Sequence record: OZ035807.1
Origin: Vectrevirus LI10P3
Length of the DNA stretch: 44,534 nucleotides
Reading direction: 5' to 3' (one strand)
The position numbers and the translations under genes are program-made. Shown here piece after piece: positions 1 to 44,534 of this stretch (the first letter of the stretch is position 1; the number at the start of each line of letters is the position of its first letter). Under the pieces are notes generated by a model, which searched no databases, was not told the DNA's origin, and was given only the letters and a program-made list of their open reading frames with translations.

Positions 1-29
1 TGTAAAATACAAAGCTAGGAGAGATAAGC

Positions 30-329
30 GTGAGCGTACACAATAAACATGCAGCTACAGAGGATGAGGTTGGCATTCTGCATGGTGCTATTACCAAAAT
101 CTTCAATAAGAAAGCACAGGCAATACTGGACACTATAGAAGAAGACCCTGATGCAGCATTACATTTAGTGTCTGGTAAGGATATTGGTGCGATGTGTAAG
201 TGGGTTCTTGATAACGGCATTACCGCCACACCTGCTGCACAGCAGGAAGAGTCCAAGTTATCTAAGCGCCTCAAGGCTATCCGAGAGGCATCCAGTGGCA
301 AGATTATTCAGTTTACAAAAGAGGAGTGA
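30..329 (+). CDS. putative terminase small subunit (T7 gp18 position)
   Basis: 99-aa ORF with GTG start and AGGAGAG RBS about 6 nt upstream; lies immediately upstream of the HNH and large terminase genes. Call is by synteny only, no motif recognised. Confidence 0.45.
   Translation: MSVHNKHAATEDEVGILHGAITKIFNKKAQAILDTIEEDPDAALHLVSGKDIGAMCKWVLDNGITATPAAQQEESKLSKRLKAIREASSGKIIQFTKEE
122..144 (+). promoter_or_regulatory. phage RNAP promoter-like sequence inside small terminase gene
   Basis: ACTGGACACTATAGAAGAAG matches the core of the repeated promoter consensus; upstream ATTTAC part is not conserved (GCAATA). Confidence 0.35.
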
Positions 330-330
330 T

Positions 331-774
331 ATGCATAGATGGTGTGAATCTCAAGGTTATACCATCTTACCTTCTGGTGTCATCCTTTCAAAGGGTGGCA
401 CCCCTCTCAAACCATTCAAGGCGGGTAGGGGTTATTTAGCAGTTAAAATTAAAAATAAAGAAGGTAAATGGCGTAATGTCTATGTTCATCAATTAGTGGC
501 TTATAAGTATTTACCTAAAACTAATAATGAAGTAAACCACAAAGACGGCGATAAGCACAACAATGATGTTAGCAACTTGGAGTGGGTAACAAGAAGCGAG
601 AATAACTATTTAAAATGCAATGGAAATGATAGGAGTGCCTTAAATAGCTATTTAGCAAGATTAAAAGATTGCTTCTTGCAAGGTAAGGGTGTAGCAGAAA
701 CCGCTAGACTTACTGGTAAAAGTGAACCAAGAGTTTCTTCTCTCTTTAAGGAGTGGCGAAATGGCAAAGGCTAG
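331..774 (+). CDS. HNH homing endonuclease
   Basis: ATG at 331 with GAGGAG RBS 4 nt upstream; motif NHKDGDKHNNDVSNLEWVTRSENN is a typical HNH signature; sits between small and large terminase genes and overlaps both. Confidence 0.7.
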   Translation: MHRWCESQGYTILPSGVILSKGGTPLKPFKAGRGYLAVKIKNKEGKWRNVYVHQLVAYKYLPKTNNEVNHKDGDKHNNDVSNLEWVTRSENNYLKCNGNDRSALNSYLARLKDCFLQGKGVAETARLTGKSEPRVSSLFKEWRNGKG

Positions 775-2659
775 AGAATCACAGGCAGAGGCATTAAAGC
801 GGTGGGAAAACCTTAAAGAACTACAAGACACTTTTAAATATACAGCGGAAGGTTTGCTTCTCTTTGCAGATACAGTTATTCATAACTTAATTGCAGGCAA
901 CCCTCATCTGATTCGTATGCAGGCGGATATCTTGAAGTTCCTATTTTACGGACACAAGTACCGCCTCATCGAAGCGCCTCGTGGTATCGCTAAGACAACA
1001 CTATCAGCAATCTATACGGTATTCCGTATTATTCATGAACCGCATAAGCGTATCATGGTTGTGTCCCAAAACGCCAAGCGAGCAGAGGAAATCGCAGGTT
1101 GGGTAGTTAAAATCTTCCGTGGCTTAGACTTTCTTGAGTTTATGCTGCCGGATATCTACGCTGGGGACCGTGCATCAGTTAAGGCGTTTGAGATTCATTA
1201 CACCCTACGTGGTAGTGATAAGTCTCCTTCTGTATCCTGTTACTCAATCGAAGCAGGTATGCAGGGTGCTCGTGCTGATATTATTCTAGCGGATGACGTA
1301 GAGTCGATGCAGAATGCTCGTACGGCAGCGGGCCGTGCCTTGCTTGAGGAGCTGACTAAGGAGTTTGAATCTATCAACCAGTTTGGGGATATCATTTACC
1401 TTGGTACACCTCAGAACGTAAACTCTATCTACAACAACCTACCTGCTCGTGGTTACTCTGTTCGTATCTGGACTGCGCGTTACCCTTCAGTAGAGCAAGA
1501 GCAATGTTATGGCGACTTCCTTGCACCTATGATTGTGCAAGATATGAAGGACAACCCAGCACTTCGCTCAGGGTACGGGTTGGATGGTAATAGTGGTGCA
1601 CCTTGTGCCCCTGAAATGTATGATGATGAAGTCCTGATTGAGAAGGAAATCTCTCAGGGTGCTGCTAAGTTCCAGCTTCAGTTCATGCTTAACACTCGCA
1701 TGATGGATGCTGACAGATACCCATTACGCCTGAACAATCTAATCTTCACCTCGTTTGGTACAGAGGAAGTCCCTGTGATGCCTACGTGGAGTAATGATTC
1801 CATAAACATCATTGGTGATGCACCTAAGTATGGTAACAAGCCTACGGATTTCATGTACAGACCTGTAGCTCGCCCATACGAATGGGGTGCTGTCTCCCGC
1901 AAGATTATGTATATTGACCCTGCGGGTGGTGGTAAGAACGGAGACGAGACGGGTGTAGCCATCGTATTCCTGCACGGCACATTCATTTATGTGTATCAGT
2001 GCTTTGGTGTACCTGGCGGATACCGAGAGTCGTCCCTGAATCGCATTGTGCAGGCCGCAAAGCAGGCGGGTGTTAAAGAGGTATTCATTGAGAAGAACTT
2101 TGGTCATGGCGCGTTTGAGGCGGTAATTAAGCCGTACTTTGAACGAGAGTGGCCTGTAACTCTGGAAGAGGATTACGCCACCGGACAGAAAGAGTTGCGT
2201 ATCATTGAGACGCTGGAGCCGCTCATGGCAGCACATAGGCTTATCTTCAATGCAGAGATGGTGAAGTCAGACTTTGAGTCGGTACAGCACTATCCGCTTG
2301 AACTACGCATGTCCTACAGTCTTTTCAATCAAATGTCGAACATAACGATTGAGAAGAACAGCCTCCGGCACGATGACCGCCTAGACGCCCTGTATGGCGC
2401 TATACGGCAATTAACTTCTCAGATAGACTATGACGAGGTTACACGGATTAATCGCCTCAGAGCGCAGGAGATGCGCGATTACATCCATGCTATGAATACA
2501 CCTCATCTACGCAGGGCAATGCTATATGGAGATTACGGTACTGAGCGAAGAGTGACCAACACTTCCGTAGCGATGCAGCAGCGAGTTTACGGGCAGAACT
2601 ACCGAAATAAATCGGCAAGCAGAAATACACTTTCTGCAAGGATTTCAAGGACTTATTAA
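761..2659 (+). CDS. terminase large subunit (T7 gp19-like)
   Basis: 632 aa from ATG 761 with AAGGAG RBS; Walker-A-like EAPRGIAKTT near N-terminus; size and position conserved. Confidence 0.85.
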   Translation: MAKARESQAEALKRWENLKELQDTFKYTAEGLLLFADTVIHNLIAGNPHLIRMQADILKFLFYGHKYRLIEAPRGIAKTTLSAIYTVFRIIHEPHKRIMVVSQNAKRAEEIAGWVVKIFRGLDFLEFMLPDIYAGDRASVKAFEIHYTLRGSDKSPSVSCYSIEAGMQGARADIILADDVESMQNARTAAGRALLEELTKEFESINQFGDIIYLGTPQNVNSIYNNLPARGYSVRIWTARYPSVEQEQCYGDFLAPMIVQDMKDNPALRSGYGLDGNSGAPCAPEMYDDEVLIEKEISQGAAKFQLQFMLNTRMMDADRYPLRLNNLIFTSFGTEEVPVMPTWSNDSINIIGDAPKYGNKPTDFMYRPVARPYEWGAVSRKIMYIDPAGGGKNGDETGVAIVFLHGTFIYVYQCFGVPGGYRESSLNRIVQAAKQAGVKEVFIEKNFGHGAFEAVIKPYFEREWPVTLEEDYATGQKELRIIETLEPLMAAHRLIFNAEMVKSDFESVQHYPLELRMSYSLFNQMSNITIEKNSLRHDDRLDALYGAIRQLTSQIDYDEVTRINRLRAQEMRDYIHAMNTPHLRRAMLYGDYGTERRVTNTSVAMQQRVYGQNYRNKSASRNTLSARISRTY

Positions 2660-2680
2660 TTACTGGACACTATAGAAGGA
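2655..2680 (+). promoter_or_regulatory. phage RNAP promoter
   Basis: ATTAATTACTGGACACTATAGAAGGA directly after the terminase stop; matches 13-copy consensus. Confidence 0.7.
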
Positions 2681-2816
2681 AGGCCCAGATAATAAGAGAA
2701 AATAATAGGTAATATATAGTTTAACCTAGGTTATATAGGTATGCCTTAGTATGGGTGTACTCCTGTACACCCTATTCCTTACTACCTTACTATATTTACA
2801 TAATAGGAGAGAGACA

Positions 2817-3095
2817 ATGGCTAATGATTATAGTAGTCAACCATTAACAGGTAAGTCTAAGAGAAAGCAGGTACAACCTGTAAGTGAAGAACTAATGCTT
2901 CCGGTAATCAAAAAAGAGGAAGCTAGTAAGAAAAGCAATGTCATTAATGATGCCACCAAATCAGGTAAACAGAAAGGGGCCATGGTGTGCCTTGAAGTGG
3001 AAGGTGGTATATTGAAGATTGCTATCGCGGTTGATGGCAAAGAAGATTCAGAGTGGAAGTTAGTAACAGTGGAACCAGCTGTTAACCCAGTTTAA
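2817..3095 (+). CDS. hypothetical protein, paralog A
   Basis: ATG 2817 with AGGAGAGAG RBS; shares the block SGKQKGAMVxLE...L(K/H)IA(I/V)A with the next ORF. Confidence 0.6.
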   Translation: MANDYSSQPLTGKSKRKQVQPVSEELMLPVIKKEEASKKSNVINDATKSGKQKGAMVCLEVEGGILKIAIAVDGKEDSEWKLVTVEPAVNPV

Positions 3096-3113
3096 GATAA
3101 GGAGGAAGATTAC

Positions 3114-3401
3114 ATGGCTAAATATGGTACTACAGGTTCTGTTACTGGTCAGGCTTTTCGAGTAAAAGCAGTACAAACTATTGCAACGGCAATCCCGATG
3201 CCTGTTGTTAAAGAAGCAGACCTTAATAGTAAAGATCACCCTATCAACATCAAACATTTATCAGGTAAACAGAAAGGTGCAATGGTTGCTCTTGAGAAAA
3301 GTGACACAACCTTACATATTGCTGTTGCACGTGGTAGTGAACCAACAGACCCTTGGGATTTAACTGGCATGGAATCGCTCGCTGTCACTCCAGCAGGTTG
3401 A
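3114..3401 (+). CDS. hypothetical protein, paralog B
   Basis: ATG 3114 with TAAGGAGGAAG RBS; clear sequence similarity to 2817..3095 (LSGKQKGAMVALE). Confidence 0.6.
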   Translation: MAKYGTTGSVTGQAFRVKAVQTIATAIPMPVVKEADLNSKDHPINIKHLSGKQKGAMVALEKSDTTLHIAVARGSEPTDPWDLTGMESLAVTPAG

Positions 3402-3406
3402 GAATA

Positions 3407-3751
3407 ATGCTTAACAAATACTTCAAGCGCCGTGAGTTCGCTTGCCGATGTGGGTGCGGTACATCCACTGTTGATGCTGAGTTATTACAGGTAGTCACAG
3501 ATGTGCGTGAGCACTTTGGTGTTCCTGTGGTTATTACTTCTGGTCATCGCTGTGCTAAGCACAATGCTAATGTAGGAGGAGCTAAGAACTCCATGCATCT
3601 TACTGGTAAGGCTGCTGACATTAAGGCACGAGGCATCTTACCATCTGAAGTGCATAAGTATCTTACTGATAAGTACCAAGGCAAATATGGGATTGGTAAG
3701 TACAACTCCTTCACCCACATTGATGTACGGGATGGGTGTGCACGATGGTAG
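3407..3751 (+). CDS. endolysin, zinc peptidase M15 family
   Basis: 114 aa; motif SGHRCAKHNANVGGAKNSMHLTGKAADI ... FTHIDVR is the His/Asp/His zinc-ligand pattern of small M15 peptidases. Confidence 0.75.
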   Translation: MLNKYFKRREFACRCGCGTSTVDAELLQVVTDVREHFGVPVVITSGHRCAKHNANVGGAKNSMHLTGKAADIKARGILPSEVHKYLTDKYQGKYGIGKYNSFTHIDVRDGCARW

Positions 3752-3859
3752 GTTGTGTTGCATGGTGTGAACGCATGGTTGCTAAGGCTTCAGAGGAAGG
3801 CAACTATGAAGATTGGCAGAACTACTCAACTTTATTAGCTCAATGGAAAGGGAGATGCA

Positions 3860-4009
3860 ATGAAAAAGCTGTTCAAATCTAAGAAGGTTGTAGGTGCACT
3901 AGTTGCATTGGCAATTGCTCTTGTTTCTGTAGGTCTTGGTGTAGACCTTGGCTCTGGCACGGAATCCTCTGTGACAGACGTGGTCTGCCAAGTGATCACC
4001 TGTGAATAA
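3860..4009 (+). CDS. small secreted/membrane protein (lysis cassette)
   Basis: 49-aa ORF MKKLFKSKKVVGALVALAIALVSVG... with signal-peptide-like N-terminus; GGGAGA RBS; below ORF-track size cutoff. Confidence 0.4.
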   Translation: MKKLFKSKKVVGALVALAIALVSVGLGVDLGSGTESSVTDVVCQVITCE

Positions 4010-4223
4010 GTTTCTAGAAGTGCTGGCAGGTCTTATTGGCCTGCTTGTCTCTGCTAAGAAGAAACAAGAAGAGAAGGAGGCACAAAGTGAAGCGAATCAT
4101 GTTAGTGACAATCCTGCTGATTGGTTCGCTGACCACTTCCGGGTGTCAGCAGGCGTTACCAGAGAAAGCAATGGTGAAACCCCTGAGGCCGACGCTGACG
4201 GAAGTTTACGAGGTAGACGATAA
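4002..4223 (+). CDS. possible i-spanin-like membrane protein
   Basis: 73 aa, N-terminal hydrophobic segment then charged region; GTG start without clear RBS; contains the lipoprotein ORF in +1 frame. Confidence 0.3.
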   Translation: MNKFLEVLAGLIGLLVSAKKKQEEKEAQSEANHVSDNPADWFADHFRVSAGVTRESNGETPEADADGSLRGRR

Positions 4224-4296
4224 GGTCTGCTTTAGTAAGCCTGACGCTACAAAATTAGGTTTGTATATTCTTTCGCTAGAACGCGGATATAATTAA
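4099..4296 (+). CDS. putative o-spanin (outer-membrane lipoprotein)
   Basis: 65 aa from internal ATG; hydrophobic signal followed by LTTSGC lipobox-like motif and Pro-rich segment; embedded in / overlapping the 4002 ORF, the usual spanin arrangement. Confidence 0.45.
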   Translation: MLVTILLIGSLTTSGCQQALPEKAMVKPLRPTLTEVYEVDDKVCFSKPDATKLGLYILSLERGYN

Positions 4297-4325
4297 TACA
4301 TAGCTTTATGTATCAGTGTCTTACG

Positions 4326-4349
4326 ATTTACTGGACACTATAGAAGAGG
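4326..4349 (+). promoter_or_regulatory. phage RNAP promoter
   Basis: TTTACTGGACACTATAGAAGAG upstream of tailspike 1. Confidence 0.7.
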
Positions 4350-4427
4350 TAAGATAGCGCCGTTCTTTTGAGCGGCCTATTACTAGCCAATCTTCATAGG
4401 GAGGGTTGGAAAGTAATAGGAGATAGC

Positions 4428-6326
4428 ATGGCTAAATTAACCAAACCTAATACTGAAGGAATCTTGCATAAAGGACAATCTTTGTATGAGTACCTTGATG
4501 CGAGAGTTTTAACATCAAAGCCGTTTGGTGCTGTAGGTGACGCCACTACTGATGATACGGAGGTTATAGCTGCTTCATTAAACTCTCAGAAAGCTGTCAC
4601 AATCTCAGACGGTGTATTCTCTAGCTCTGGTATTAATAGTAATTACTGTAACTTAGACGGTAGAGGTAGTGGGGTGCTAAGTCACCGTTCCAGTACAGGT
4701 AATTACTTAGTATTTAACAATCCACGTACAGGTCGCTTAAGTAATATTACGGTAGAAAGTAATAAGGCGACTGATACAACTCAGGGACAGCAGGTATCTC
4801 TTGCCGGTGGAAGTGATGTTACTGTAAGTGACGTTAACTTCTCAAACGTTAAAGGTACTGGTTTCAGTTTAATCGCATACCCTAATGATGCGCCACCTGA
4901 TGGACTTATGATTAAAGGTATTCGAGGTAGCTATTCAGGCTATGCTACTAATAAGGCAGCTGGATGCGTACTTGCTGACTCCTCAGTTAACTCCCTCATA
5001 GATAACGTCATTGCTAAGAACTACCCTCAGTTCGGAGCAGTAGAGTTGAAAGGTACAGCCAGTTACAACATAGTCAGTAATGTTATAGGGACAGATTGCC
5101 AGCATGTAACTTACAACGGCACTGAAGGGCCAATAGCTCCTTCTAATAACCTTATCAAGGGGGTGATGGCTAATAACCCTAAGTATGCAGCGGTTGTTGC
5201 AGGCAAAGGAAGTACGAACTTAATCTCAGACGTGCTAGTAGATTACTCAACTTCTGATGCTAGGCAGGCTCATGGTGTTACCGTAGAAGGGTCTGATAAC
5301 GTCATAAATAATGTGCTTATGTCAGGATGTGATGGTACTAACTCTTTAGGACAAGGGCAGACTGCTACAATTGCACGCTTTATAGGTACAGCTAATAACA
5401 ACTATGCGTCTGTATTCCCTAGCTACAGTGCTACAGGTGTTATTACTTTCGAATCCGGCTCTACCCGTAACTTCGTAGAGGTAAAGCACCCTGGCAGGAG
5501 AAACGACCTTCTCAGTTCTGCTAGTACTATTGACGGTGCAGCTACTATTGACGGCACTAATAATAGTAACGTAGTGCACGCACCTGCCTTAGGGCAGTAC
5601 ATAGGTAGTATGTCAGGTAGGTTCGAATGGCGGATTAAGTCCATGTCACTCCCTTCAGGCGTTCTTACTTCTGCTGATAAGTACAGAATGCTTGGGGATG
5701 GTGCTGTATCATTAGCTGTAGGTGGTGGTACTTCTTCTCAAGTTCGCCTATTTACTTCTGATGGTACTTCTCGGACAGTGGCCCTCACCAACGGTAACGT
5801 GCGTCTTTCTACCAGTAGCACAGGCTATTTGCAGTTAGGTGCTGATGCAATGACCCCAGATAGTACTGGTACATACGCATTAGGTTCCGCCAGTCGAGCA
5901 TGGTCTGGCGGTTTTACTCAAGCAGCATTCACTGTTACCTCAGATGCTCGGTGTAAAACAGAACCTCTTACTATCTCAGATGCCTTACTGGATGCTTGGT
6001 CTGAAGTTGACTTTGTGCAGTTTCAGTATTTGGATCGTGTTGAGGAGAAGGGTGCAGACTCAGCTAGATGGCACTTCGGTATCATCGCTCAGCGAGCTAA
6101 GGAGGCTTTCGAACGTCACGGTATAGATGCACATCGCTATGGCTTCTTGTGCTTCGACAGTTGGGATGATGTATACGAGGAAGATGCCAATGGCTCTCGT
6201 AAACTGATTACACCAGCAGGTTCCCGCTACGGTATTCGTTACGAGGAAGTACTGATATTAGAGGCTGCGTTGATGCGGAGGACTATCAAGCGTATGCAGG
6301 AAGCACTAGCTTCCCTGCCTAAGTGA
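4428..6326 (+). CDS. tailspike 1: beta-helix depolymerase with C-terminal intramolecular chaperone (peptidase S74-like) domain
   Basis: ATG 4428 with GGAGA RBS; N-terminal FGAVGDATTDDTEVIAA is the pectate-lyase-fold signature; C-terminus has SDARCK followed by LDAWSEVDF...WHFGIIAQRAKEAF, as in endosialidase / tail-fibre chaperone domains. Confidence 0.8.
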   Translation: MAKLTKPNTEGILHKGQSLYEYLDARVLTSKPFGAVGDATTDDTEVIAASLNSQKAVTISDGVFSSSGINSNYCNLDGRGSGVLSHRSSTGNYLVFNNPRTGRLSNITVESNKATDTTQGQQVSLAGGSDVTVSDVNFSNVKGTGFSLIAYPNDAPPDGLMIKGIRGSYSGYATNKAAGCVLADSSVNSLIDNVIAKNYPQFGAVELKGTASYNIVSNVIGTDCQHVTYNGTEGPIAPSNNLIKGVMANNPKYAAVVAGKGSTNLISDVLVDYSTSDARQAHGVTVEGSDNVINNVLMSGCDGTNSLGQGQTATIARFIGTANNNYASVFPSYSATGVITFESGSTRNFVEVKHPGRRNDLLSSASTIDGAATIDGTNNSNVVHAPALGQYIGSMSGRFEWRIKSMSLPSGVLTSADKYRMLGDGAVSLAVGGGTSSQVRLFTSDGTSRTVALTNGNVRLSTSSTGYLQLGADAMTPDSTGTYALGSASRAWSGGFTQAAFTVTSDARCKTEPLTISDALLDAWSEVDFVQFQYLDRVEEKGADSARWHFGIIAQRAKEAFERHGIDAHRYGFLCFDSWDDVYEEDANGSRKLITPAGSRYGIRYEEVLILEAALMRRTIKRMQEALASLPK

Positions 6327-6333
6327 GAGACAG

Positions 6334-6358
6334 GCAGTGCGTAAGCACTGCTTTTCAC
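6334..6358 (+). terminator. hairpin between tailspike genes
   Basis: GCAGTGC-GTAA-GCACTGC perfect 7-bp stem followed by TTTTCAC. Confidence 0.4.
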
Positions 6359-6411
6359 GCAACTTTTCTTAAAGGTTATCATGGTGGTAGCCTTTCAGAA
6401 GAGGAGGTTAC

Positions 6412-8124
6412 ATGCTTCAAAGATTAAGTGCTTACTTGGTGAAGTACAAGAGTAAACTAACAGGTACTATTGAGCGCCTGCTATCTGATAAACTATCGGA
6501 TACAATAGATGTTGCGGATTTTGGAGTTACTCCATCTTCCAATGACAACAGGCAAGCACTTCAAGCTGCGTTCAATGCAGTCAGAGTGTTAGGCGGTGGC
6601 ACTGTATTAGTCACTAAAGCTGGCGAATATAAACTCAGTGGTACTGTTGAGATATTTGCTAATACACACTTCAAGGTTGCTAAAGGTGTAACATTTGTAC
6701 GTGACTACGAAACAGGAGATACGCTATTCAGATTATCACAAGGGCAAGCTAGTAATGTAACAGTCAGTGGAGGTATCTATGAAGGCAATGGTCACACTAA
6801 GGGAGATACACCTTTTGTAGTATTTGCATCTACTAGTAATAATGATTTGAAGTTTGAAGGCATAACAGTTAACAATGTAGTGGACTACCACGCCATAGAT
6901 TTAGCAGATTGGAACAACGTAGTTATTCGTGATTGTAAATTCCTAGGTTTTAAGAATACAGGCAGTCGTAACTTCTCAGAGGCTATACAGTTAGACCCAG
7001 GTCTTATTACAGTTGGTCACTATGTACAGTCAAGTGGTATGCTGGTGGAGAATTGCTATGCTGGTCCAAACACAGAATCAGGGTTTGGAGGTTATGGTGC
7101 ACTAATTGGAAATCACGCCTCAGCTTACGGTGTACAGGACAACAATATCCGTATCTTGAATTGCACTACAGATGGTGCTCTCTTTGCAGGTGTACGTGTA
7201 TTTAACTGGAAAAACTGGACAGTGCGTGGTTGCACATTTAGGAACTCTAATGCAAGAGGTGTTCATGTTACACCTGTTTCCTCTCAAACTAAACCGCAAG
7301 GAACTCGACAAGGTAGTATTGTAGATTGTACTTTTGATGGCGTAAGAACACCAGTGCTAATTGCTGCACCATCTTGGCCTTTTACCGATATTAGTGACAT
7401 TTGGCATGACCATATTGAAATTTCTAATAATACTATGATCCTCACAGAGGATGTATCCTATGGTGTAGATGCAAGGTGGTGTAAGAATTTAATTGTAAAA
7501 GGTAATACAGGCTCTGGTGGCTTAGGGTTAATCGGTTTACGCTTTGGGACAAAATACCACATCGAAGGTAATACTTGGGAAAACGGAAGAGGTAGTGGGA
7601 TTTGGTTAGGTGAGTCTGATGCTACTACATTCATTGGTACTGGATTATCGGGCGAAGGTATACTTAGTCGTAATATCCTCTCTAAATTAGGGCAATATGG
7701 TATTCATGTAAACTGCAAGGTTGGCGGTCTAGTGATTAAGGCTAATAATATGAAGGAAGTGTCTACAGCTGAAGCAGGTAGGCGCTTCATTAGCATAGAC
7801 ACAGGAGCTAACAACATCCTAGTAGAAGGTAATATTGGAGTAGATGGAGAAAGCCCTAACAAGCCAAGCCTTGGTATTCGTGTTACTTCTTCTTGTTCCA
7901 ATATTAAACTCATTGGCAATGATTGCTATGGTACACAGGCGCCTCAGAATAACCAAGGAGTCGGTTCTAGTACGGTGATTGTTTATGGACTAAATGGCAA
8001 TCCTACAACTTTAGGCGTAGGTGCACCTGTAGGCTCTTTAGCAACTGATATCAATGGGTCTGGTGGTAGTACATTGTACGTTAAAGAATCTGGTACATCT
8101 GCTCAAGGTTGGGTTGCAAAGTAG
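6412..8124 (+). CDS. tailspike 2: beta-helix depolymerase-like
   Basis: 570 aa, AGAGGAGG RBS; N-terminal VADFGVTPSSNDNRQALQAAFNA pattern typical of pectate-lyase-fold tailspikes; no C-terminal chaperone domain. Confidence 0.75.
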   Translation: MLQRLSAYLVKYKSKLTGTIERLLSDKLSDTIDVADFGVTPSSNDNRQALQAAFNAVRVLGGGTVLVTKAGEYKLSGTVEIFANTHFKVAKGVTFVRDYETGDTLFRLSQGQASNVTVSGGIYEGNGHTKGDTPFVVFASTSNNDLKFEGITVNNVVDYHAIDLADWNNVVIRDCKFLGFKNTGSRNFSEAIQLDPGLITVGHYVQSSGMLVENCYAGPNTESGFGGYGALIGNHASAYGVQDNNIRILNCTTDGALFAGVRVFNWKNWTVRGCTFRNSNARGVHVTPVSSQTKPQGTRQGSIVDCTFDGVRTPVLIAAPSWPFTDISDIWHDHIEISNNTMILTEDVSYGVDARWCKNLIVKGNTGSGGLGLIGLRFGTKYHIEGNTWENGRGSGIWLGESDATTFIGTGLSGEGILSRNILSKLGQYGIHVNCKVGGLVIKANNMKEVSTAEAGRRFISIDTGANNILVEGNIGVDGESPNKPSLGIRVTSSCSNIKLIGNDCYGTQAPQNNQGVGSSTVIVYGLNGNPTTLGVGAPVGSLATDINGSGGSTLYVKESGTSAQGWVAK

Positions 8125-8135
8125 TAGGAAGTTGA

Positions 8136-8285
8136 ATGCCATTAATCAAATCAGTTAAGCAAAGTGCTGTACACCAGAACACAGAAGAACTCATTCAATC
8201 AGGACGTGACCCTAAGCAAGCCTATGCGATTGCCAAGGATGTACAACGTCGTGCTATGAAGAAACCTTCTGCATCTTCTGCGTAA
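8136..8285 (+). CDS. hypothetical small protein
   Basis: 49-aa ORF (MPLIKSVKQSAVHQ...) with AGGAAG RBS; no recognisable motif. Confidence 0.3.
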   Translation: MPLIKSVKQSAVHQNTEELIQSGRDPKQAYAIAKDVQRRAMKKPSASSA

Positions 8286-9131: not shown

Positions 9132-9160
9132 TTGACAAGGCCATCTCAATATAATACTAT
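9132..9160 (+). promoter_or_regulatory. candidate host sigma70 early promoter
   Basis: TTGACA - 17 bp - TACTAT read directly. Confidence 0.4.
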
Positions 9161-9199
9161 TCATCACGTAGGCAGCACTGAGGTGCTTAGTAGCCAGCT

Positions 9200-9260: not shown

Positions 9261-9303
9261 TATGTATGCCGTGGTTAATTACTTATTGAATGAGGGATTA
9301 ACT

Positions 9304-9707: not shown

Positions 9708-9715
9708 ATTAACTG

Positions 9716-34056: not shown

Positions 34057-36458
34057 TGGAAGTACAAGGTTCATTAGGTAGACAAATCCAAGGGATTAGC
34101 CAGCAGCCGCCAGCGGTACGCTTGGATGGTCAGTGCACAGCTATGGTTAATATGATACCTGATGTAGTGAATGGTACTCAATCACGCATGGGTACAACTC
34201 ATATTGCAAAGATACTTGATGCTGGGACTGATGACATGGCTATTCATCATTATCGCAGAGGTGATGGTGATGAAGAGTATTTCTTCACGTTGAAGAAAGG
34301 ACAAGTTCCTGAGATATTTGATAAGTATGGGCGCAAATGTAATGTGACTTCACAAGATGCACCTATGACCTACCTCTCTGAGGTTGTTAATCCAAGGGAA
34401 GATGTACAATTCATGACGATAGCTGATGTTACTTTCATGCTTAATCGTAGGAAAGTAGTTAAAGCTAGTAACAGGAAGTCACCTAAAGTTGGAAACAAAG
34501 CCATTGTGTTTTGTGCGTATGGTCAATATGGTACATCTTATTCCATTGTAATTAATGGGACCAACGCTGCTAGTTTTAAAACACCGGATGGTGGAAGTGC
34601 AGACCATGTTGAACAAATTCGAACTGAACGTATCACTTCTGAATTGTACTCTAAGTTGCAGCAATGGAGCGGTGTGAGTGACTATGAAATACAAAGAGAC
34701 GGTACTAGTATATTTATCGAGAGACGGGATGGTGCTAGCTTTACAATAACAACCACCGATGGTGCAAAAGGTAAGGACTTAGTGGCTATCAAGAATAAAG
34801 TTAGCTCTACTGACCTACTCCCTTCTCGTGCGCCTGCTGGTTATAAAGTACAAGTGTGGCCTACTGGCAGCAAACCTGAGTCTCGTTACTGGCTGCAAGC
34901 TGAGCCTAAAGAGGGAAACCTTGTATCTTGGAAAGAAACAATAGCTGCCGATGTATTACTTGGGTTTGATAAAGGCACAATGCCTTATATCATTGAACGT
35001 ACAGGTATCGTAGACGGCATAGCTCAATTCAAGATAAGACAAGGCGATTGGGAAGATCGTAAAGTAGGAGATGACCTGACTAACCCTATGCCTTCTTTTA
35101 TTGATGAAGAAGTACCTCAGACAATAGGTGGGATGTTCATGGTGCAGAACCGCCTATGCTTTACAGCAGGTGAAGCTGTTATTGCTTCTCGTACATCATA
35201 CTTCTTCGATTTCTTTCGTTATACGGTTATCTCTGCATTGGCGACTGACCCATTTGATATTTTCTCAGATGCTAGTGAAGTCTACCAGCTAAAACATGCA
35301 GTGACCTTAGATGGCGCTACCGTGTTGTTCTCTGATAAGTCACAATTCATACTGCCAGGAGATAAGCCTTTAGAGAAGTCAAATGCATTGCTTAAGCCTG
35401 TTACAACATTTGAAGTGAACAATAAAGTGAAGCCAGTAGTAACTGGTGAATCGGTAATGTTTGCCACTAATGATGGTTCTTACTCTGGTGTACGAGAGTT
35501 CTATACAGACTCTTATAGTGACACTAAGAAGGCACAAGCAATCACAAGTCATGTGAATAAACTCATCGAAGGTAACATTACCAACATGGCAGCAAGCACC
35601 AATGTCAACAGGTTACTTGTCACTACCGATAAGTATCGTAACATAATCTACTGCTACGATTGGTTATGGCAAGGAACAGACCGTGTACAATCAGCATGGC
35701 ATGTGTGGAAGTGGCCTATAGGTACAAAGGTGCGAGGTATGTTTTATTCTGGCGAATTACTTTATCTGCTCCTTGAGAGAGGCAATGGTGTCTATCTGGA
35801 GAAGATGGATATGGGTGATGCATTAACCTATGGTTTAAATGATCGCATCCGAATGGATAGACAGGCAGAGTTAATCTTCCAGCATTTCAAAGCAGAAGAT
35901 GAATGGGTATCTGAACCACTCCCTTGGGTTCCTACTAACCCAGAACTTTTAGATTGCATCTTAATCGAGGGTTGGGATTCATATATTGGTGGTTCTTTCC
36001 TATTCAAATACAACCCCGGTGATAACACCTTGTCTACAACCTTTGATATGCATGATGATAGCCACGTAAAAGCGAAGGTTATTGTTGGTCAGATTTACCC
36101 TCAAGAGTTTGAACCAACACCTGTAGTTATCAGAGATAGGCAAGACCGTGTATCCTATATTGATGTACCTGTTGTGGGATTAGTTCACCTTAATCTTGAT
36201 ATGTATCCTGATTTCTCCGTGGAGGTTAAGAATGTGAAGAGTGGTAAAGTACGCAGGGTGCTAGCGTCAAACCGTATAGGTGGTGCTCTCAACAATACAG
36301 TAGGTTATGTTGAACCAAGAGAAGGTGTCTTCAGATTCCCACTGAGAGCTAAGAGTACGGATGCTGTTTATCGTATTATTGTAGAATCACCTCACACATT
36401 CCAGCTTCGTGATATTGAGTGGGAAGGGAGCTACAATCCAACCAAAAGGAGGGTCTAA
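34056..36458 (+). CDS. tail tubular protein B (T7 gp12-like)
   Basis: 800 aa; N-terminal GISQQP motif shared with T7 gp12 as I recall it; start overlaps upstream stop (TAATG). Confidence 0.8.
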   Translation: MEVQGSLGRQIQGISQQPPAVRLDGQCTAMVNMIPDVVNGTQSRMGTTHIAKILDAGTDDMAIHHYRRGDGDEEYFFTLKKGQVPEIFDKYGRKCNVTSQDAPMTYLSEVVNPREDVQFMTIADVTFMLNRRKVVKASNRKSPKVGNKAIVFCAYGQYGTSYSIVINGTNAASFKTPDGGSADHVEQIRTERITSELYSKLQQWSGVSDYEIQRDGTSIFIERRDGASFTITTTDGAKGKDLVAIKNKVSSTDLLPSRAPAGYKVQVWPTGSKPESRYWLQAEPKEGNLVSWKETIAADVLLGFDKGTMPYIIERTGIVDGIAQFKIRQGDWEDRKVGDDLTNPMPSFIDEEVPQTIGGMFMVQNRLCFTAGEAVIASRTSYFFDFFRYTVISALATDPFDIFSDASEVYQLKHAVTLDGATVLFSDKSQFILPGDKPLEKSNALLKPVTTFEVNNKVKPVVTGESVMFATNDGSYSGVREFYTDSYSDTKKAQAITSHVNKLIEGNITNMAASTNVNRLLVTTDKYRNIIYCYDWLWQGTDRVQSAWHVWKWPIGTKVRGMFYSGELLYLLLERGNGVYLEKMDMGDALTYGLNDRIRMDRQAELIFQHFKAEDEWVSEPLPWVPTNPELLDCILIEGWDSYIGGSFLFKYNPGDNTLSTTFDMHDDSHVKAKVIVGQIYPQEFEPTPVVIRDRQDRVSYIDVPVVGLVHLNLDMYPDFSVEVKNVKSGKVRRVLASNRIGGALNNTVGYVEPREGVFRFPLRAKSTDAVYRIIVESPHTFQLRDIEWEGSYNPTKRRV

Positions 36459-37204
36459 TGGCTATAGGTTCAGCCGTTATGGCTGGTATGTCTTCTATTG
36501 GTAGTATGTTTGCAGGTAGCGGTGCAGCAGCCGCTGTTGGTGGTACTGCCGCAGCAGCAGGAGGGACAGCCGCCGCAGGTGGCGGAGGTTTGCTTGGCTC
36601 CCTTGGTAGTTTCTTAGGAGGTTCTTCTGCTGGCTTCTCTAATGCAGGACTGCTTAGTGCAGGTATGCAAGGTCTTGGTCTTCTAGGCAATCTTTTTGGT
36701 GGAAGTGATGAAGCCAAAGCTATGAAGAAAGCTCAGGAGGAGCAATGGCGGCAGCAGTTAATTGCTACACAAGAAGCATATAAGACAGTAACAGATGCAG
36801 AACGCTCTGCTGCTAAACAGTATCATGCAGATGCAATCAGTAATCAGGCTTCACTGCTACAGCAAAGAGCACAGGTTGCATTACTTGCTGGTGCTACTGG
36901 TACTGGTGGTAACTCTGTGTCTTCTATGCTGAATGACTTAGCAGCAGAAGGCGGAAGGAACCAGAGTACAATTATCGATAACTATGAGAATCAGAAGATT
37001 AACTTCACCAACCAGCTTAAGTCCATCCAACGGGGTGGTCAGATGCAGATGCGTGAGTTTAAGAAACCTTCTGCCGTGAGCACCTTGGTGCAAGGTATAC
37101 CGAGTCTGGCATCTGCCTATGTAACAGGTAGTAAGTCCGGCATGGCTTTAGGTAAAGCTTTAACTGATTCTCGTACATATTCATCTGGAACAAGAGGTAT
37201 TTAA
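36458..37204 (+). CDS. internal virion protein (small, Gly/Ala-rich)
   Basis: 248 aa from ATG 36458 with AGGAGGG RBS; Gly/Ala-rich N-terminal half; first of three ejection-protein genes. Confidence 0.6.
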   Translation: MAIGSAVMAGMSSIGSMFAGSGAAAAVGGTAAAAGGTAAAGGGGLLGSLGSFLGGSSAGFSNAGLLSAGMQGLGLLGNLFGGSDEAKAMKKAQEEQWRQQLIATQEAYKTVTDAERSAAKQYHADAISNQASLLQQRAQVALLAGATGTGGNSVSSMLNDLAAEGGRNQSTIIDNYENQKINFTNQLKSIQRGGQMQMREFKKPSAVSTLVQGIPSLASAYVTGSKSGMALGKALTDSRTYSSGTRGI

Positions 37205-40152
37205 TGGCAATTGAGCGACAAGCAGTACAAGGTCTGCCACAAGTGCAGGCCACTTCTCCTAATGTCATGACCTTTGCACCTCAGCGAGTTGGAGGTGTGG
37301 AGGCTGGCGTAGCTTCTACCTCCGGTAGTCGATTTATCGAAGACCTTATTCGAGCAGCCAGTAGTGTAGCTGATGTAACCACTGGTATCCTTAATCAAAA
37401 GATTGAGGAAGATAAGGTTGTTCAAATGGAGCGGGCATATAACGGATTAATGCCTTCTGAGGATGCAACTCGTGGTGGCGCTCGTGCTAACATGCTTGTC
37501 AAAGCTCAACTGCTAGCTAATGATGAAGCAGCACGAATGAAAGACATGGCTACTCGTTTCCAAGGAACGGATGACGAGTGGACACAACTTATGGTTAATT
37601 CTCGTAATGAGATGCAGAATAAGCTGTTCCAGCAATACCCTGAGTTGCAAGGTGACAAAGATACTATGCGTATGGTCACTAATGTCTTCCAAGAACAGCA
37701 GCCTCAGATTTGGGCGACACGAACCCAGCATAAACTTGACCGTGAACAAGCAGACCGTGAGGATACCTTTGACGGGCGAGTGGCTTCTACTTGGGATTCT
37801 AATATTGACCCTGAAGCATCTGGCTATGCTTTACAGGAACGAATCCGCGAAGGTCTTACTCAAGGATTACTACCTGAACAGATGCACAAGAAGTTAGTCC
37901 AGCGAGCAATTTCACTTGCACAAGGCGGTGATGTTAGCATGGCTGAAGCCCTGAAGTATGTGAAGGACGATAAGGGTGTTTCTGTTTATGCTAAGAATCC
38001 ACAGCTTATCACAGCCATCACTAGTGGTAATGCAGTTTGGGCTAGGAATAATGTAGCTGATGTAACTCGTATGTCTTTCGAAGTTAAAGAATCCTACCTT
38101 GCAGGGGATTTAACTGATGAAGAATTGTTGGAACGAGCACAGCACATTAATAATCTGACAGGTAACTCTGTCTTCTCTAATCCAGAGCTAGAGGTACTGA
38201 TGCGCCAACGGGCTAAGCAGAATGCAGAGCTAGGTGCAATGCAGGATATGCGACGTGAGCTTTACTCCGACCGCCTGACTGGCTTCCAAGGTAAGACTGA
38301 TAAAGAGAAGAAGGCTTACATTGATGTTATCAAACAGGATAGCCAACTTTATGCAGACCAGCAAATCAAACAACGTGGCTTGGACCCTTATAGTCAAGAG
38401 GCTGAAGCTATTCGTGGTGCAGTGGAAGTGCAGCGCCTACAATTCATGAACTCCAAAGGCTTAGTGGATGATACCTTTGAGTCTCGTATCAAAGCCATGG
38501 AATCTATGCTATCTCCTGAGCACTTTGCCAAGGGCGAACCACAAGAGTTGATGACTATTCGCCAGTTGTGGGAACAGTTGCCAGAAGAGGGCCGAGGTGT
38601 CTTTGGTGACACGGTGAATGGCTACATGGATAACTACAACACTGCACTACAAATGGGAGAGACACCTTTGCAGTCTGCAAGGTTTGCGCGTGAAGCACAG
38701 CAGAAATTCTCTCGTACTGAGAAGGAAACCAAGAAGTTCAACTCAGCTATTGGAGATGCACTGGATGAGGTATCTGGTGCTGGCTGGTTCGATGGTAAAA
38801 CCGAAGTGTCAGACTTAGGTAAAGCTATTGCAGAAGAGGAGTTACGAGCTAAGGCTAATATGCTGTGGTCTAGTGGTATGCGTAACATGGATTCCATCAA
38901 GAAGGCTTTAATTACTTGGGGCAATAAACGCTACACTCAAACAGAGGATGCAAAGACTTCCGGTGGCTATTTCATTAAAGGTGATTACACTTCTGCATCT
39001 GATATGCTTATGTCAGTTGGGAAAGGCGTAAATCCTACCGATGTACCTCTGGCGCTTGGTAGGTATGTAGAAACACAGATGCCAGAATTGAAGAAGGAGC
39101 TTCAAGAGTGGGAAACTAAAGATGATATATACATTGATTACAATGAACAGAAAGGTACTTTCGTGATTCGTGCTGGTGCAGCAGGTCGCCCTCTTTCTGG
39201 AGTAATCCCTGTAACCTCTTTAGATACCACTTCACTACTAGATTCTGCCTATCAGAAGAAAGTAGAGGAACGAGATAAAGGCGAGTATGTTCACCCTTAT
39301 CGTACAGATATTGGTGCACAAGAGCCTATGCCAGCTAAACCAACTGCCAAAGATATTGGTAAATTTGGACTAGCTAACTTCCTCATGTCTTCTGCTTTTG
39401 CTTCTGGTGAGAATCTGCCTTCTAACTTCGAGATTAACTATCGAGGTAATATGCAACAATTCTATGACAAGCTAGCTATGGATGAGAATAAAGATAAAGT
39501 TGGCTTTAATAAGGCAACTGGAACCTTTACTCCATATAAAGATGCTCACGGTGAGTCTATCGGTTACGGTCATTTCTTAACGGAAGAAGAGAAGCGAAAC
39601 GGGTATATTAAGATTGGTGATGAACTAGTTCCCTATCGAGGGTCTATGTCTCAGCTTACAGAGAGCAAGGCTCGCGCTCTTATGGAGCAAGATGCCAAGA
39701 AGCATGTGCCTCCTACTCGTGACTGGAAGATTCCGTTTGACCAGATGCATCCTGCACAGCAACGTGGCTTGATGGATTTAACCTACAATTTAGGTAAAGG
39801 TGGAATCCAGAACTCACCGCGTGCTCTTGCTGCATTCAAAGCTGGTAAGCTTACGGAAGGCTTTATCGAAATGCTGGGCACTGCATCAAGTGAAGGTAAG
39901 CGTATCCCTGGTCTACTGAAGCGACGCGCTGAGGCATACAATATGGCATCTGCTGGTGGTGTGCCTAAGATTACCGAAGTGGAGACTCGTGAAGATGGCT
40001 CCATGTGGGTTAGGTTTGGTGGACCTATGCCAACAGGTTCTGTCTCGGCATGGACTCATAAACGTATTGGCGCGGATGGTTGGTATCAGGTTTATGAGGC
40101 TGCACCTACCAAGTTAGCTAAAGGTTCTAAGGTAGGTAAATTTAAGTTGTAG
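37204..40152 (+). CDS. internal virion protein with C-terminal lysozyme-like domain
   Basis: 982 aa; C-terminal TPYKDAHGESIGYGHFLT resembles the T4-lysozyme YKDTEGYYTIGIGH block; GLLKRRAEAYNM further downstream. Confidence 0.65.
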   Translation: MAIERQAVQGLPQVQATSPNVMTFAPQRVGGVEAGVASTSGSRFIEDLIRAASSVADVTTGILNQKIEEDKVVQMERAYNGLMPSEDATRGGARANMLVKAQLLANDEAARMKDMATRFQGTDDEWTQLMVNSRNEMQNKLFQQYPELQGDKDTMRMVTNVFQEQQPQIWATRTQHKLDREQADREDTFDGRVASTWDSNIDPEASGYALQERIREGLTQGLLPEQMHKKLVQRAISLAQGGDVSMAEALKYVKDDKGVSVYAKNPQLITAITSGNAVWARNNVADVTRMSFEVKESYLAGDLTDEELLERAQHINNLTGNSVFSNPELEVLMRQRAKQNAELGAMQDMRRELYSDRLTGFQGKTDKEKKAYIDVIKQDSQLYADQQIKQRGLDPYSQEAEAIRGAVEVQRLQFMNSKGLVDDTFESRIKAMESMLSPEHFAKGEPQELMTIRQLWEQLPEEGRGVFGDTVNGYMDNYNTALQMGETPLQSARFAREAQQKFSRTEKETKKFNSAIGDALDEVSGAGWFDGKTEVSDLGKAIAEEELRAKANMLWSSGMRNMDSIKKALITWGNKRYTQTEDAKTSGGYFIKGDYTSASDMLMSVGKGVNPTDVPLALGRYVETQMPELKKELQEWETKDDIYIDYNEQKGTFVIRAGAAGRPLSGVIPVTSLDTTSLLDSAYQKKVEERDKGEYVHPYRTDIGAQEPMPAKPTAKDIGKFGLANFLMSSAFASGENLPSNFEINYRGNMQQFYDKLAMDENKDKVGFNKATGTFTPYKDAHGESIGYGHFLTEEEKRNGYIKIGDELVPYRGSMSQLTESKARALMEQDAKKHVPPTRDWKIPFDQMHPAQQRGLMDLTYNLGKGGIQNSPRALAAFKAGKLTEGFIEMLGTASSEGKRIPGLLKRRAEAYNMASAGGVPKITEVETREDGSMWVRFGGPMPTGSVSAWTHKRIGADGWYQVYEAAPTKLAKGSKVGKFKL

Positions 40153-40216
40153 TATCTAACTCAAGGCTTGTCTCACATGTGAGACAGGTCTTTATGATAG
40201 GCACTATGGAGGAATT

Positions 40217-43200
40217 ATGGAACAAGACATTAAGACTAATTGGGCTGGATATGTCCAGTCTACTCCTGAGCCGTTTTCTATTGAGGCGGCTCCGGTATCG
40301 GCTCCTACGATACGCCAGCGTAATGAGTTACAAGAGCAAGTTCTTGAAGCTAAAGCTGATGCTGATATCTTAGGTGCTGTAGGTGCTGCCTTCCAGAATG
40401 AGTGGTTGGCATTCGGAGGCAAGCGGTGGTATGACCGTGCCACTGCTGATTTCACACCTCAACCAGACTTCGAGATACAACCTGAGCAACGTGAAGCACT
40501 ACGTTTCAAATATGGTACAGATATGATGCAGACAATCACTGAGGGTGTTCGTTCTGAGGATGAATTGAACTTCCGTATTCAGAATGCTGATGAAGACCTT
40601 GAGCGCAATAAGCGCATTGCTCAGGCTGGCTGGGTTGGCTCTGTGGCGACGATTGGCGCTGCTGTGCTTGACCCAGTGGGTTGGGTTGCCTCTATCCCAA
40701 CTGGCGGTGCAGCCAAAGTCGGCCTCGTAGGTCGTGCCGTGCGTGGCGCTATCGCCGCTGGCGTGAGCAATGCCGCTATTGAATCCGTATTGGTCCAAGG
40801 TGACATGACTCGTGATTTAGATGACATTATGGTAGCACTAGGTTCCGGTATGGCTATGGGTGGCGTTATTGGCGCTGTAGCGCGTGGTAGGGCCACTAAG
40901 CTCAGTGAGCAAGGGGATGACAGGGCTGCGAGCATTGTGCGCAGTGCAGACGCAGGGGACCGCTATGTGCGTGCTGTTGCTGATGACAGTATCGGTGCGA
41001 TGCGTGTTAAGGGCGAAGAGGTACTCACTGAGGGCGCATTTGATATATCTAGTAAAGGCGAAGACTTGCTGAAAACATTGCAGAGGGAGGGGAACTCTAT
41101 TGATATGACCCCTCGCCGCTGGGCCGGAACCATGTCTGCCCTTGGGACTGTCGTGCACTCCTCTCATGATGCTAGTGTTCGTGGCCTCGGTGCTCGCCTG
41201 TTTGAGTCTCCGCAAGGTTTAGGTATGCAAAAGGCATCTGCCAGTCTTATGCAGAATACCAACTTGAATCGACTGAAGTCTGCTGATATGAACCGTTTCA
41301 ATGACGGGTTTGACTTATGGCTCAAAGAAAATAATATCAATCCAGTTGCAGGCCATACTAACTCTCACTATGTGCAGCAATATAATGAGAAGGTATGGGA
41401 AGCTGTACGCATCGGTATGGATGAGTCTACGCCTAAGTCTATCCGTATGGCAGCAGAGGGGCAGCAAGCTATGTACCGAGAAGCCTTAGCTTTAAGGAAG
41501 CGCTCCGGTGAAGCTGGCTTTGAAAACATTAAAGCAGATAGTAAGTATATGCCTGATATCTTTGACACTATGAAAGCTCGCCGTCAATTTGATAGGATAG
41601 GAAAGGATATAGATAAAGAAGATATCATTGAGTTATTCTCTCGTGCTTATCAGAACGGCGCTCGTAAAATTCCAAAAGAAGTAGCGGATGAAATTGCACG
41701 AGCACAAGTAAACCGTGTTGTGGATGCCACTCTGACAGGACGTATGAGTTTCGAAAAGGCTATGTCTGGTCAGACTAAAGCCGAGTATGAAGCAATAATG
41801 CGCAAGGCAGGCTTCAGTGATGAAGAAATTGAAAAGATGGTAGAAGCTCTGGATAACAAAGAAACCAGAGATAACATCTCTAACCGAGCTAAAATGAGTT
41901 TAGGACTAGATGTTACTCAAGAATACAATGGTATTCGTATGCGTGACTTCATGAATACCAACGTGGAAGAGCTAACAGATAACTATATGAAGGAGGCAGC
42001 AGGTGGCGCTGCATTGGCCCGTCAAGGATTCTCTACCTATCAGGCTGCACTTAATGCAATTGACCTTGTAGAGCGAAATGCACGAAACGCGGCTAAGGAT
42101 AGCAAGGCTAGCTTAGCACTAGATGAAGAGATTCGTCAAATGCGAGAAGGGCTTCGCTTGATTATGGGTAAATCTATCGATGTAGACCCACAGGCTTTGT
42201 CTACTAAAATGCTGCGACGTGGTCGTGACATTACAGGTGTACTTCGCTTAGGTCAGATGGGCTTCGCACAGCTAGGCGAACTTGCTAACTTCATGGGTGA
42301 GTTTGGTATTGCTGCAACCACTATAGCTTTAGGTAAGCAATTCCGCTTTACATCTAAGGCTTTGCGGAGCGGTGATGGCTTCTTTCGAGATAAGAACTTG
42401 GCAGAAGTAGAGAGAATGGTAGGTTACATTGGTGAGGATAACTGGCTAACAACCAAGGGTGCACGTCCAGATGAGTTTGGTGATGTAACCACAGTAAAAG
42501 GAATGATGGCTCACTTTGACCAATCCATGAACTCAATACGTCGTGCTCAGACCAACCTATCACTTTTCCGCATGGCACAGGGTTCTCTGGAGCGAATGAC
42601 CAATAGGCAAATAGCTTTGTCTTTCATTGACCACCTTGAAGGCAAGAAGATTATTCCTCAGAAGAAACTGGAGGAACTTGGTCTTACTCAGGAGTTCGTG
42701 ACTAATCTACAGAAGCACTATGATGCTAACTCTAAAGGTTCTGGCTTGCTTGGCTTTGATACAATGCCTTATGCCATGGGTGAAACTTTAGCTAATGCTA
42801 TTCGTCGTAAGTCAGGTCTAATTATCCAACGTAACTTCATTGGTGATGAAGGTATCTGGATGAACAAAGCACTAGGTAAGACATTTGCACAGCTTAAGTC
42901 ATTCTCTCTTGTATCTGGTGAGAAGCAATTTGGTCGAGGGATTCGCCACGATAAAATTGGTCTTGCTAAGAAGACAGCTTACGGGTTTGCTTTGGGTTCA
43001 ATAGTGTATGCGGCAAAAGCCTATGTGAACTCTATTGGGCGAGAAGACCAAGATGAATATTTGGAAGAGAAGTTATCTCCTAAAGGGTTGGCCTTTGGTG
43101 CAATGGGTATGATGAGTACAACTGCTGTATTTAGTCTAGGTGGAGATTTCTTAGGTGGCCTAGGTGTTCTACCTTCTGAGTTAGTACAATCCCGTTATGA

Positions 43201-43414
43201 GGCTGGCTTTCAGACTAAGGGTTTGATAGACCAAATACCACTAGTAGGTGTTGGTCAAGATGCATATCGTTTAGCAGATTCTATAACTAAATATGCAGAG
43301 GGTGATACAGAAGGTGTAGATGTGGCACGTAGGGCTTTACGCTTAGTGCCTCTAACTAATGTAATAGGAATCCAGAACGCATTGCGTTATGGCTTAGATG
43401 AACTGGAGGATTGA
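40217..43414 (+). CDS. internal virion protein (large, T7 gp16-like)
   Basis: 1065 aa; last of the three ejection-protein genes before the tail-fibre adaptor. Confidence 0.7.
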   Translation: MEQDIKTNWAGYVQSTPEPFSIEAAPVSAPTIRQRNELQEQVLEAKADADILGAVGAAFQNEWLAFGGKRWYDRATADFTPQPDFEIQPEQREALRFKYGTDMMQTITEGVRSEDELNFRIQNADEDLERNKRIAQAGWVGSVATIGAAVLDPVGWVASIPTGGAAKVGLVGRAVRGAIAAGVSNAAIESVLVQGDMTRDLDDIMVALGSGMAMGGVIGAVARGRATKLSEQGDDRAASIVRSADAGDRYVRAVADDSIGAMRVKGEEVLTEGAFDISSKGEDLLKTLQREGNSIDMTPRRWAGTMSALGTVVHSSHDASVRGLGARLFESPQGLGMQKASASLMQNTNLNRLKSADMNRFNDGFDLWLKENNINPVAGHTNSHYVQQYNEKVWEAVRIGMDESTPKSIRMAAEGQQAMYREALALRKRSGEAGFENIKADSKYMPDIFDTMKARRQFDRIGKDIDKEDIIELFSRAYQNGARKIPKEVADEIARAQVNRVVDATLTGRMSFEKAMSGQTKAEYEAIMRKAGFSDEEIEKMVEALDNKETRDNISNRAKMSLGLDVTQEYNGIRMRDFMNTNVEELTDNYMKEAAGGAALARQGFSTYQAALNAIDLVERNARNAAKDSKASLALDEEIRQMREGLRLIMGKSIDVDPQALSTKMLRRGRDITGVLRLGQMGFAQLGELANFMGEFGIAATTIALGKQFRFTSKALRSGDGFFRDKNLAEVERMVGYIGEDNWLTTKGARPDEFGDVTTVKGMMAHFDQSMNSIRRAQTNLSLFRMAQGSLERMTNRQIALSFIDHLEGKKIIPQKKLEELGLTQEFVTNLQKHYDANSKGSGLLGFDTMPYAMGETLANAIRRKSGLIIQRNFIGDEGIWMNKALGKTFAQLKSFSLVSGEKQFGRGIRHDKIGLAKKTAYGFALGSIVYAAKAYVNSIGREDQDEYLEEKLSPKGLAFGAMGMMSTTAVFSLGGDFLGGLGVLPSELVQSRYEAGFQTKGLIDQIPLVGVGQDAYRLADSITKYAEGDTEGVDVARRALRLVPLTNVIGIQNALRYGLDELED

Positions 43415-44376
43415 TGAGTTATACTTTCACAGAACATATAGCCAACGGTACGCAAGTAACCTATCCCTTTAGATTTGCTGGCAGGGATAAAGGCTATCTT
43501 CGTGCCTCAGATGTGATAGTGGAATCTCTTCAAGGTAACACTTGGATTGAGGTTACATCTGGCTGGCAACTAACTGGCACGCACCAGATTACTTTTGATG
43601 TAGCACCAGTTGCAGGTTTGAAGTTCCGTATTCGAAGGGAAGTACAAAAGGAGTATCCATACGCTGAGTTTGACCGTGGTGTTACCTTGGATATGAAGTC
43701 TTTAAATGGTTCTTTCATTCATATACTGGAGATTACACAGGAGTTACTTGACGGGTTTTATCCAGAAGGATACTTCATTAAACAGAATGTAAGCTGGGGC
43801 GGCAATAAGATTACTGATTTGGCTGATGGCACAAATCCTGGAGATGCAGTAAATAAAGGGCAGCTTGATGCCATCGACAAGAAGCATACAGATTGGAACG
43901 CCAAACAGGATATTGAGATTGCTGGCCTTAAGGCTGGTATGACTTCTGGTATTGCGCACAGAACTGTTCCTTGGTACACGATAGCCAAAGGTGGTGAGAT
44001 TTCCGTAAAACCACCTTATGAATTTCAAGATGCACTAGTTTTCCTTAATGGGGTATTGCAGCACCAAATTGTAGGCGCATACTCTATAAGCAACAACACT
44101 ATCACTTTCGCAGAGCCGCTTGTGGCGGGTACAGAGGTGTATGTGCTGATGGGTAGTCGTGTGGCTACATCTGAACCTAATATTCAGTTAGAGTTGAACT
44201 TTGACTTAGTAGAAGGCCAACAAGTAGTACAGATTGGCTCTGCATTTAAGTACATTGAGGTCTACCTTGATGGATTATTACAACCTAAACTTGCTTATCA
44301 GGTAGACGGTGACATTGTTACTTTCTCAGAGGGAGTGCCAGAATGCCGGATGACTGCTAAGATTATCACAGCATAA
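43414..44376 (+). CDS. tail-fibre N-terminal adaptor protein (T7 gp17 N-domain-like)
   Basis: 320 aa; N-terminus MSYTFTEHIANGTQVTYPFRFAGRDKGYLRASDVIV resembles the T7 gp17 tail-attachment domain pattern; lacks a receptor-binding C-terminal part. Confidence 0.65.
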   Translation: MSYTFTEHIANGTQVTYPFRFAGRDKGYLRASDVIVESLQGNTWIEVTSGWQLTGTHQITFDVAPVAGLKFRIRREVQKEYPYAEFDRGVTLDMKSLNGSFIHILEITQELLDGFYPEGYFIKQNVSWGGNKITDLADGTNPGDAVNKGQLDAIDKKHTDWNAKQDIEIAGLKAGMTSGIAHRTVPWYTIAKGGEISVKPPYEFQDALVFLNGVLQHQIVGAYSISNNTITFAEPLVAGTEVYVLMGSRVATSEPNIQLELNFDLVEGQQVVQIGSAFKYIEVYLDGLLQPKLAYQVDGDIVTFSEGVPECRMTAKIITA

Positions 44377-44385
44377 GGAGGTAGG

Positions 44386-44534
44386 ATGATTAACTCCGAA
44401 CTGGTAGATAGTGGTGTGAAGCTTGCGCCACCTGCATTAGTCTCAGGTGGGTACTTCCTCGGTATCAGTTGGAATGATTGGGTTCTTATAGCTACATTCA
44501 TTTATACTGTATTACAAATTGGCGATTGGTTTTA
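44386..44534 (+). CDS. class II holin (T7 gp17.5-like), truncated by window end
   Basis: RBS TAAGGAGG; ...GISWNDWVLIATFIYTVLQIGDWF resembles the T7 holin transmembrane segment; reading frame continues into positions 1-46 if the sequence is circularised. Confidence 0.55.
   Translation, partial: MINSELVDSGVKLAPPALVSGGYFLGISWNDWVLIATFIYTVLQIGDWF

Follow-up and report, generated by a model that had tools for sequence, protein, structure and literature searches.

The 44,534-nucleotide sequence of Vectrevirus LI10P3 (sequence record OZ035807.1), which was analysed over its whole length and is referred to here as the window, almost certainly represents the full unique sequence of an SP6/K1-5-like coliphage of the Autographiviridae (genus Vectrevirus), in which the direct terminal repeat (DTR) has been collapsed and the circular assembly has been opened near the small-terminase gene terS, leaving a holin gene split over the two ends of the record and the genome ends in its interior at approximately positions 8494 and 8757. 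The initial annotation had described the window as a rotated complete genome. The rotation was borne out by colinearity with phage K1-5 and by the recovery of the junction in independent contigs; completeness holds for the unique sequence, but not for the second copy of the DTR. The features on which this reading is based are listed in Table 1, together with neighbouring genes and the lysis cassette.

Table 1. Positions of features in the 44,534-nucleotide window.
Feature	Position	Strand	Evidence or remark
Holin gene, 5' part	44386-44534	+	Codons 1-49 and the two leading bases of codon 50
Holin gene, 3' part	1-46	+	Final base of codon 50, codons 51-64, TAA at 44-46; charged tail VKYKARRDKRERTQ
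terS, small terminase subunit (99 aa, GTG start)	30-329	+	PF11123, E=3.6e-16; phrog_891; 99% amino acid identity to K1-5 terS, residues 1-99
HNH endonuclease ORF	331-774	+	PF13392 (HNH_3), E=2.6e-11; between terS and terL, overlapping the terL start
terL, T7-type large terminase	761-2659	+	PF22530, E=1.6e-35; 99.2% amino acid identity to K1-5 terL
M15 endolysin	3407-3751		Lysis cassette
49-aa ORF, labelled second holin in relatives	3860-4006		Without Pfam match
Rz-like ORF	4087-4296		Lysis cassette
CTTAGTR heptamer cluster	8298-9255	+	16 same-strand copies in and around the DTR homolog; marks the genome-end region
Putative direct terminal repeat, single copy	8493-8757		Homology to K1-5 and Mt1B1_P10; left end 8493/8494, right end 8757
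Tail-fibre/adaptor gene	43414-44376	+	98.4% amino acid identity to K1-5 gp37; directly precedes the holin gene here and in all relatives

The holin ORF, the ATG of which is directly preceded by the Shine-Dalgarno sequence AGGAGGT, reads off the window end in frame, with 149 nucleotides (49 codons and 2 nucleotides) between its start and position 44534. When position 44534 is joined to position 1, codon 50 is completed as TAT (Y) by base 1, and the frame proceeds through V K Y K A R R D K R E R T Q to the TAA stop, giving a joined ORF (44386-44534 plus 1-46) of 195 nucleotides that encodes 64 amino acids followed by the stop. The in-frame extension was therefore found as the initial annotation had described it, whereas the lengths given there, a protein of 65 amino acids and 16 more codons, had counted in the stop codon. 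Of the six frames examined over the junction, no more than two are open, namely that of the holin and, from base 6 onwards, that of terS, and the continuation of the holin frame across the junction is not due to chance. The terS frame contains a TAA at positions 3-5 and its sole start is the GTG at position 30, which lies inside the 3' end of the holin gene. The overlap between the two genes that had been pointed out earlier thus amounts to 17 nucleotides, and a 195-nucleotide holin gene with the same 17-nucleotide terS overlap is annotated in phages AAPEc6, 101101UKE1, and K1-5, the records of which are opened elsewhere.

The contiguity of positions 44534 and 1 is not provable from the window by itself, and the genome might be regarded as incomplete, with sequence missing between its end and its start and a merely coincidental continuation of the reading frame. 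The probability of this reading is negligible in view of the occurrence of both the exact junction and the exact protein in independent contigs. The identical 64-aa protein, residue for residue, was encountered on at least 24 independent contigs, in which the holin gene is uninterrupted and is flanked by a tail-fibre gene of 320 aa and a terS gene of 99-100 aa, with conservation of the 17-nucleotide overlap. The exact 42-nucleotide junction sequence was present in all five contigs that were fetched among those carrying the identical holin, as well as in an IMG/VR contig of 44,747 bp, and a comparison of 3000 nucleotides centred on the junction with one contig (L014) extended over 3000 of 3000 nucleotides at 99.87% identity with 0 gaps. 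Moreover, a junction query for relatives that consisted of the last 1000 and the first 1000 nucleotides of the window (2000 nucleotides) aligned without gaps over all 2000 positions to 101101UKE1 (98.05% identity) and AAPEc6 (97.25% identity), and the 17 divergent nucleotides at the window start correspond to exactly 17 nucleotides in K1-5. These findings leave practically no room for lost or additional bases at the junction.

The holin tail and the terS leader are more variable than their surroundings. The segment composed of positions 44477-44534 and 1-60 displays 83% identity to 101101UKE1 over 118 nucleotides, against approximately 98% in its flanks, and the holin C-terminal tail plus terS leader exists in the genus as two alleles, YVKYKARRDKRERTQ and YNKFKIWREKRERTQ. 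This low-identity patch may be a small recombination tract.

The joined sequence is colinear with the 44,385-bp record of K1-5 (NC_008152, Vectrevirus K15) in two blocks: window positions 8494 to 44534 correspond to K1-5 positions 1 to 35367, and window positions 18 to 8757 to K1-5 positions 35385 to 44385, the two blocks being separated by 17 divergent nucleotides of the window versus 17 nucleotides of K1-5. Counterparts of 47 of the 52 K1-5 coding sequences are present in the window in the same order under rotation, and no gene other than that of the holin extends across the window boundary. Most of these counterparts share 85-100% amino acid identity with the K1-5 proteins, including the RNA polymerase (99.8%) and TerL. 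The gaps relative to K1-5 are local replacements, the main ones being the insertion of the HNH ORF at 331-760 and, at 6466-8129, a second tailspike that differs from that of K1-5; four small K1-5 ORFs are missing from the window. The HNH endonuclease ORF, which K1-5 lacks, also occurs in AAPEc6 and VEc3 as well as in some metagenomic contigs. The gene order is of the Vectrevirus type, with a single-subunit RNA polymerase, a DNA polymerase, a T7-like structural module, and a terminase, and the nearest relatives all belong to the Molineuxvirinae, genus Vectrevirus. K1-5, AAPEc6, VEc3, ULINTec6, and 101101UKE1 share with the window an identical gene order under rotation, the 17-nucleotide holin/terS overlap, and the DTR boundaries; the window differs from K1-5 in being opened inside the holin gene rather than at the DTR, and in containing one DTR copy.

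Two further observations concern the gene content of the window. The first tailspike, encoded at 4428-6326, is 98.9% identical to K1-5 gp46. The second tailspike (6412-8124), a Beta_helix protein of 570 aa, bears no relationship to the endosialidase of K1-5, a finding that suggests a swapped host-range module. In addition, nine exact copies of GGACACTATAG occur on the plus strand, at positions 128, 2665, 4333, 14648, 16950, 21500, 21963, 23194, and 31987, most of them embedded in the longer motif (A/T)TTAC(T/C)GGACACTATAGAAG; the copy at position 128 is located inside terS and has a poorer upstream half. These copies look like candidate promoters for the phage RNA polymerase.

The position of the genome ends can be approached through the terminal repeats of related phages. 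An exact repeat of 234 bp is present at either end of the K1-5 record, and the annotated 267-bp DTR of phage Mt1B1_P10 aligns to window positions 8493-8757 at 86.9% identity. Both repeat boundaries are conserved, with GTGAGGTG directly followed by TCTCGCCCTCGCCC at the left boundary, and GGGCGTGGGCTA directly followed by TCTGTTC at the right boundary. On basis of this homology of approximately 87% to two relatives, the true left end of the genome is predicted to lie at about 8493/8494 and the true right end at 8757. The virion DNA would then measure approximately 44.8 kb, with a repeat of approximately 264 bp (8494-8757) at both ends, and would run through the 44534/1 junction. A search of the window for another copy of the DTR homolog was negative; because the homolog is single-copy, the window is complete for the unique sequence only and falls approximately 264 bp short of the virion DNA predicted here. 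The region of the DTR homolog is also marked by a cluster of CTTAGTR heptamers. In the whole window this heptamer occurs 38 times versus 15.7 times expected, a count that was reached in 0 of 100 shuffled sequences, and similar short repeat arrays are known beside the terminal repeat of T7.

These data bear on the reading that the virion DNA physically terminates where the window does, in which case the holin gene would be truly interrupted or re-formed only in concatemers. Apart from the cut being common to many records, nothing specific speaks for this reading, and its probability is close to nil. The window ends lack a terminal repeat; the large terminase belongs to the T7 type, a kind that is associated with short direct terminal repeats; the exact DTRs of K1-5 and Mt1B1_P10 have their homolog internally at 8493-8757; and in other records of the genus, which have been opened at many other positions, the holin gene is located internally. 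Moreover, a suffix/prefix overlap of at least 6 nucleotides, of the assembler type, was not found between the window end and its start. True termini at the window ends were consequently rejected, based on end features without overlap and the internal DTR homolog, and the proposal in the initial annotation that the sequence had been linearised inside the holin gene rather than at its true termini was upheld.

The organisation of the record would be explained by the way in which such genomes are assembled. When a genome that carries direct terminal repeats is assembled, both copies of the repeat would merge into a single one and the sequence would close to a circle, which would subsequently have been opened 29 nucleotides upstream of the terS start codon, at a point that is either arbitrary or set by convention. 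Because the holin and terS genes overlap in this genus, a cut near terS inevitably bisects the holin gene, and rejoining of the ends restores a 64-aa holin of the T7 gp17.5 type. The cut is shared by other records: all 17 records named 'Vectrevirus' in the OZ0357xx/OZ0358xx series are in the register of the window, with their base 1 at window position 1 and their end at window position 44534. None of these records is identical to the window. For example, the first and last 40 nucleotides of OZ035816 are identical to those of the window, and a comparison over its full length gave 93.7-98.6% identity by block. Other submitters have started their records at the terS GTG, corresponding to window position 30 (OL362272 and PQ476009), or at the holin ATG, corresponding to window position 44386 (OL362273).

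Nextera libraries do not define DNA ends. The names of the OZ035xxx phages match those of a collection (bioRxiv 10.1101/2023.11.22.567924) that was sequenced from Nextera libraries and assembled with SPAdes, plus the use of Bandage and Prokka; a rotation step was looked for in that paper and is not mentioned in it. Base 1 of the window is not a gene start, and neither a gene start nor an in-frame start codon that would explain the exact cut was found at this base. The shared register points to a project-wide rotation convention of starting near terS, the reason for the exact cut being a guess; owing to the 17-nucleotide overlap with terS, any cut of this kind splits or truncates the holin gene. 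It is very improbable that the shared cut has a physical cause at the holin/terS boundary, for example a site of secondary cleavage or nicking, or a break in coverage, at which assemblers open the sequence, or that the divergent patch described above marks a recombination hot spot.

By sequence, the joined protein belongs to the family of T7 gp17.5-type holins, and a holin function is predicted on this basis. Its match to Pfam PF10746 (T7 holin family, Phage_holin_2_2) scored 87.5 bits (E=4.8e-25), in comparison to a curated gathering cut-off of 25.4 bits for this family, and covers residues 4-55, thereby spanning the junction. The protein also matched the holin family phrog_920 (E=5e-27, residues 1-63). 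Its gene follows the tail-fibre adaptor gene, which ends at 44376, and precedes terS, and its length of 64 aa is within the approximately 60-70 aa expected of the family. The T7 gp17.5 family (PF10746; phrog_920) shares with the window holin a length of approximately 64-67 aa, the position between a tail-fibre gene and terS, and a basic tail, and there is no notable difference between them. The charged C-terminal tail that had been noted earlier was confirmed, as the last 15 residues include 7 K/R and 2 D/E. The accompanying class II designation is a label that is applied to the T7 holin family and denotes two membrane spans with a charged cytoplasmic C-terminus. Kyte-Doolittle analysis of the joined protein revealed a strong hydrophobic segment at approximately residues 32-49 (peak 2.45) and a weak segment at approximately residues 13-25 (peak 1.6), and a two-span class II topology is plausible. 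The exact 64-aa protein is present in a collection of 15 billion proteins, where one of the source names is the class II holin of phage ULINTec6; going by this identity, the holin is already known and has been deposited under the name of another phage.

A separate lysis cassette is located at 3407-4296. It holds a small second ORF of 49 aa, which is annotated as a holin in relatives and is situated between the M15 endolysin and the Rz-like gene, and this ORF could perform the lysis function, in which case the split gene would be as described above but would not be the functional holin, the gp17.5 homolog acting otherwise or in an auxiliary role. This alternative is considered unlikely: the 64-aa protein strongly matches the T7 holin family, whereas a search of Pfam with the 49-aa ORF yielded no match. 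The alternative touches function alone, and the conclusion on rotation of the record is therefore unaffected by it.

Taken together, the split holin gene, predicted to encode a T7 gp17.5-type holin, is ordinary bookkeeping of a rotated record, and everything fits the known biology of Vectrevirus, with no new biology. Its importance is confined to annotation hygiene. On the linear record, the holin gene will be overlooked or shortened by gene callers, and statements on genome length and termini that are derived from the record would be off by one terminal repeat of approximately 264 bp. The record is best re-oriented to start at approximately position 8494 ahead of annotation or comparative work.
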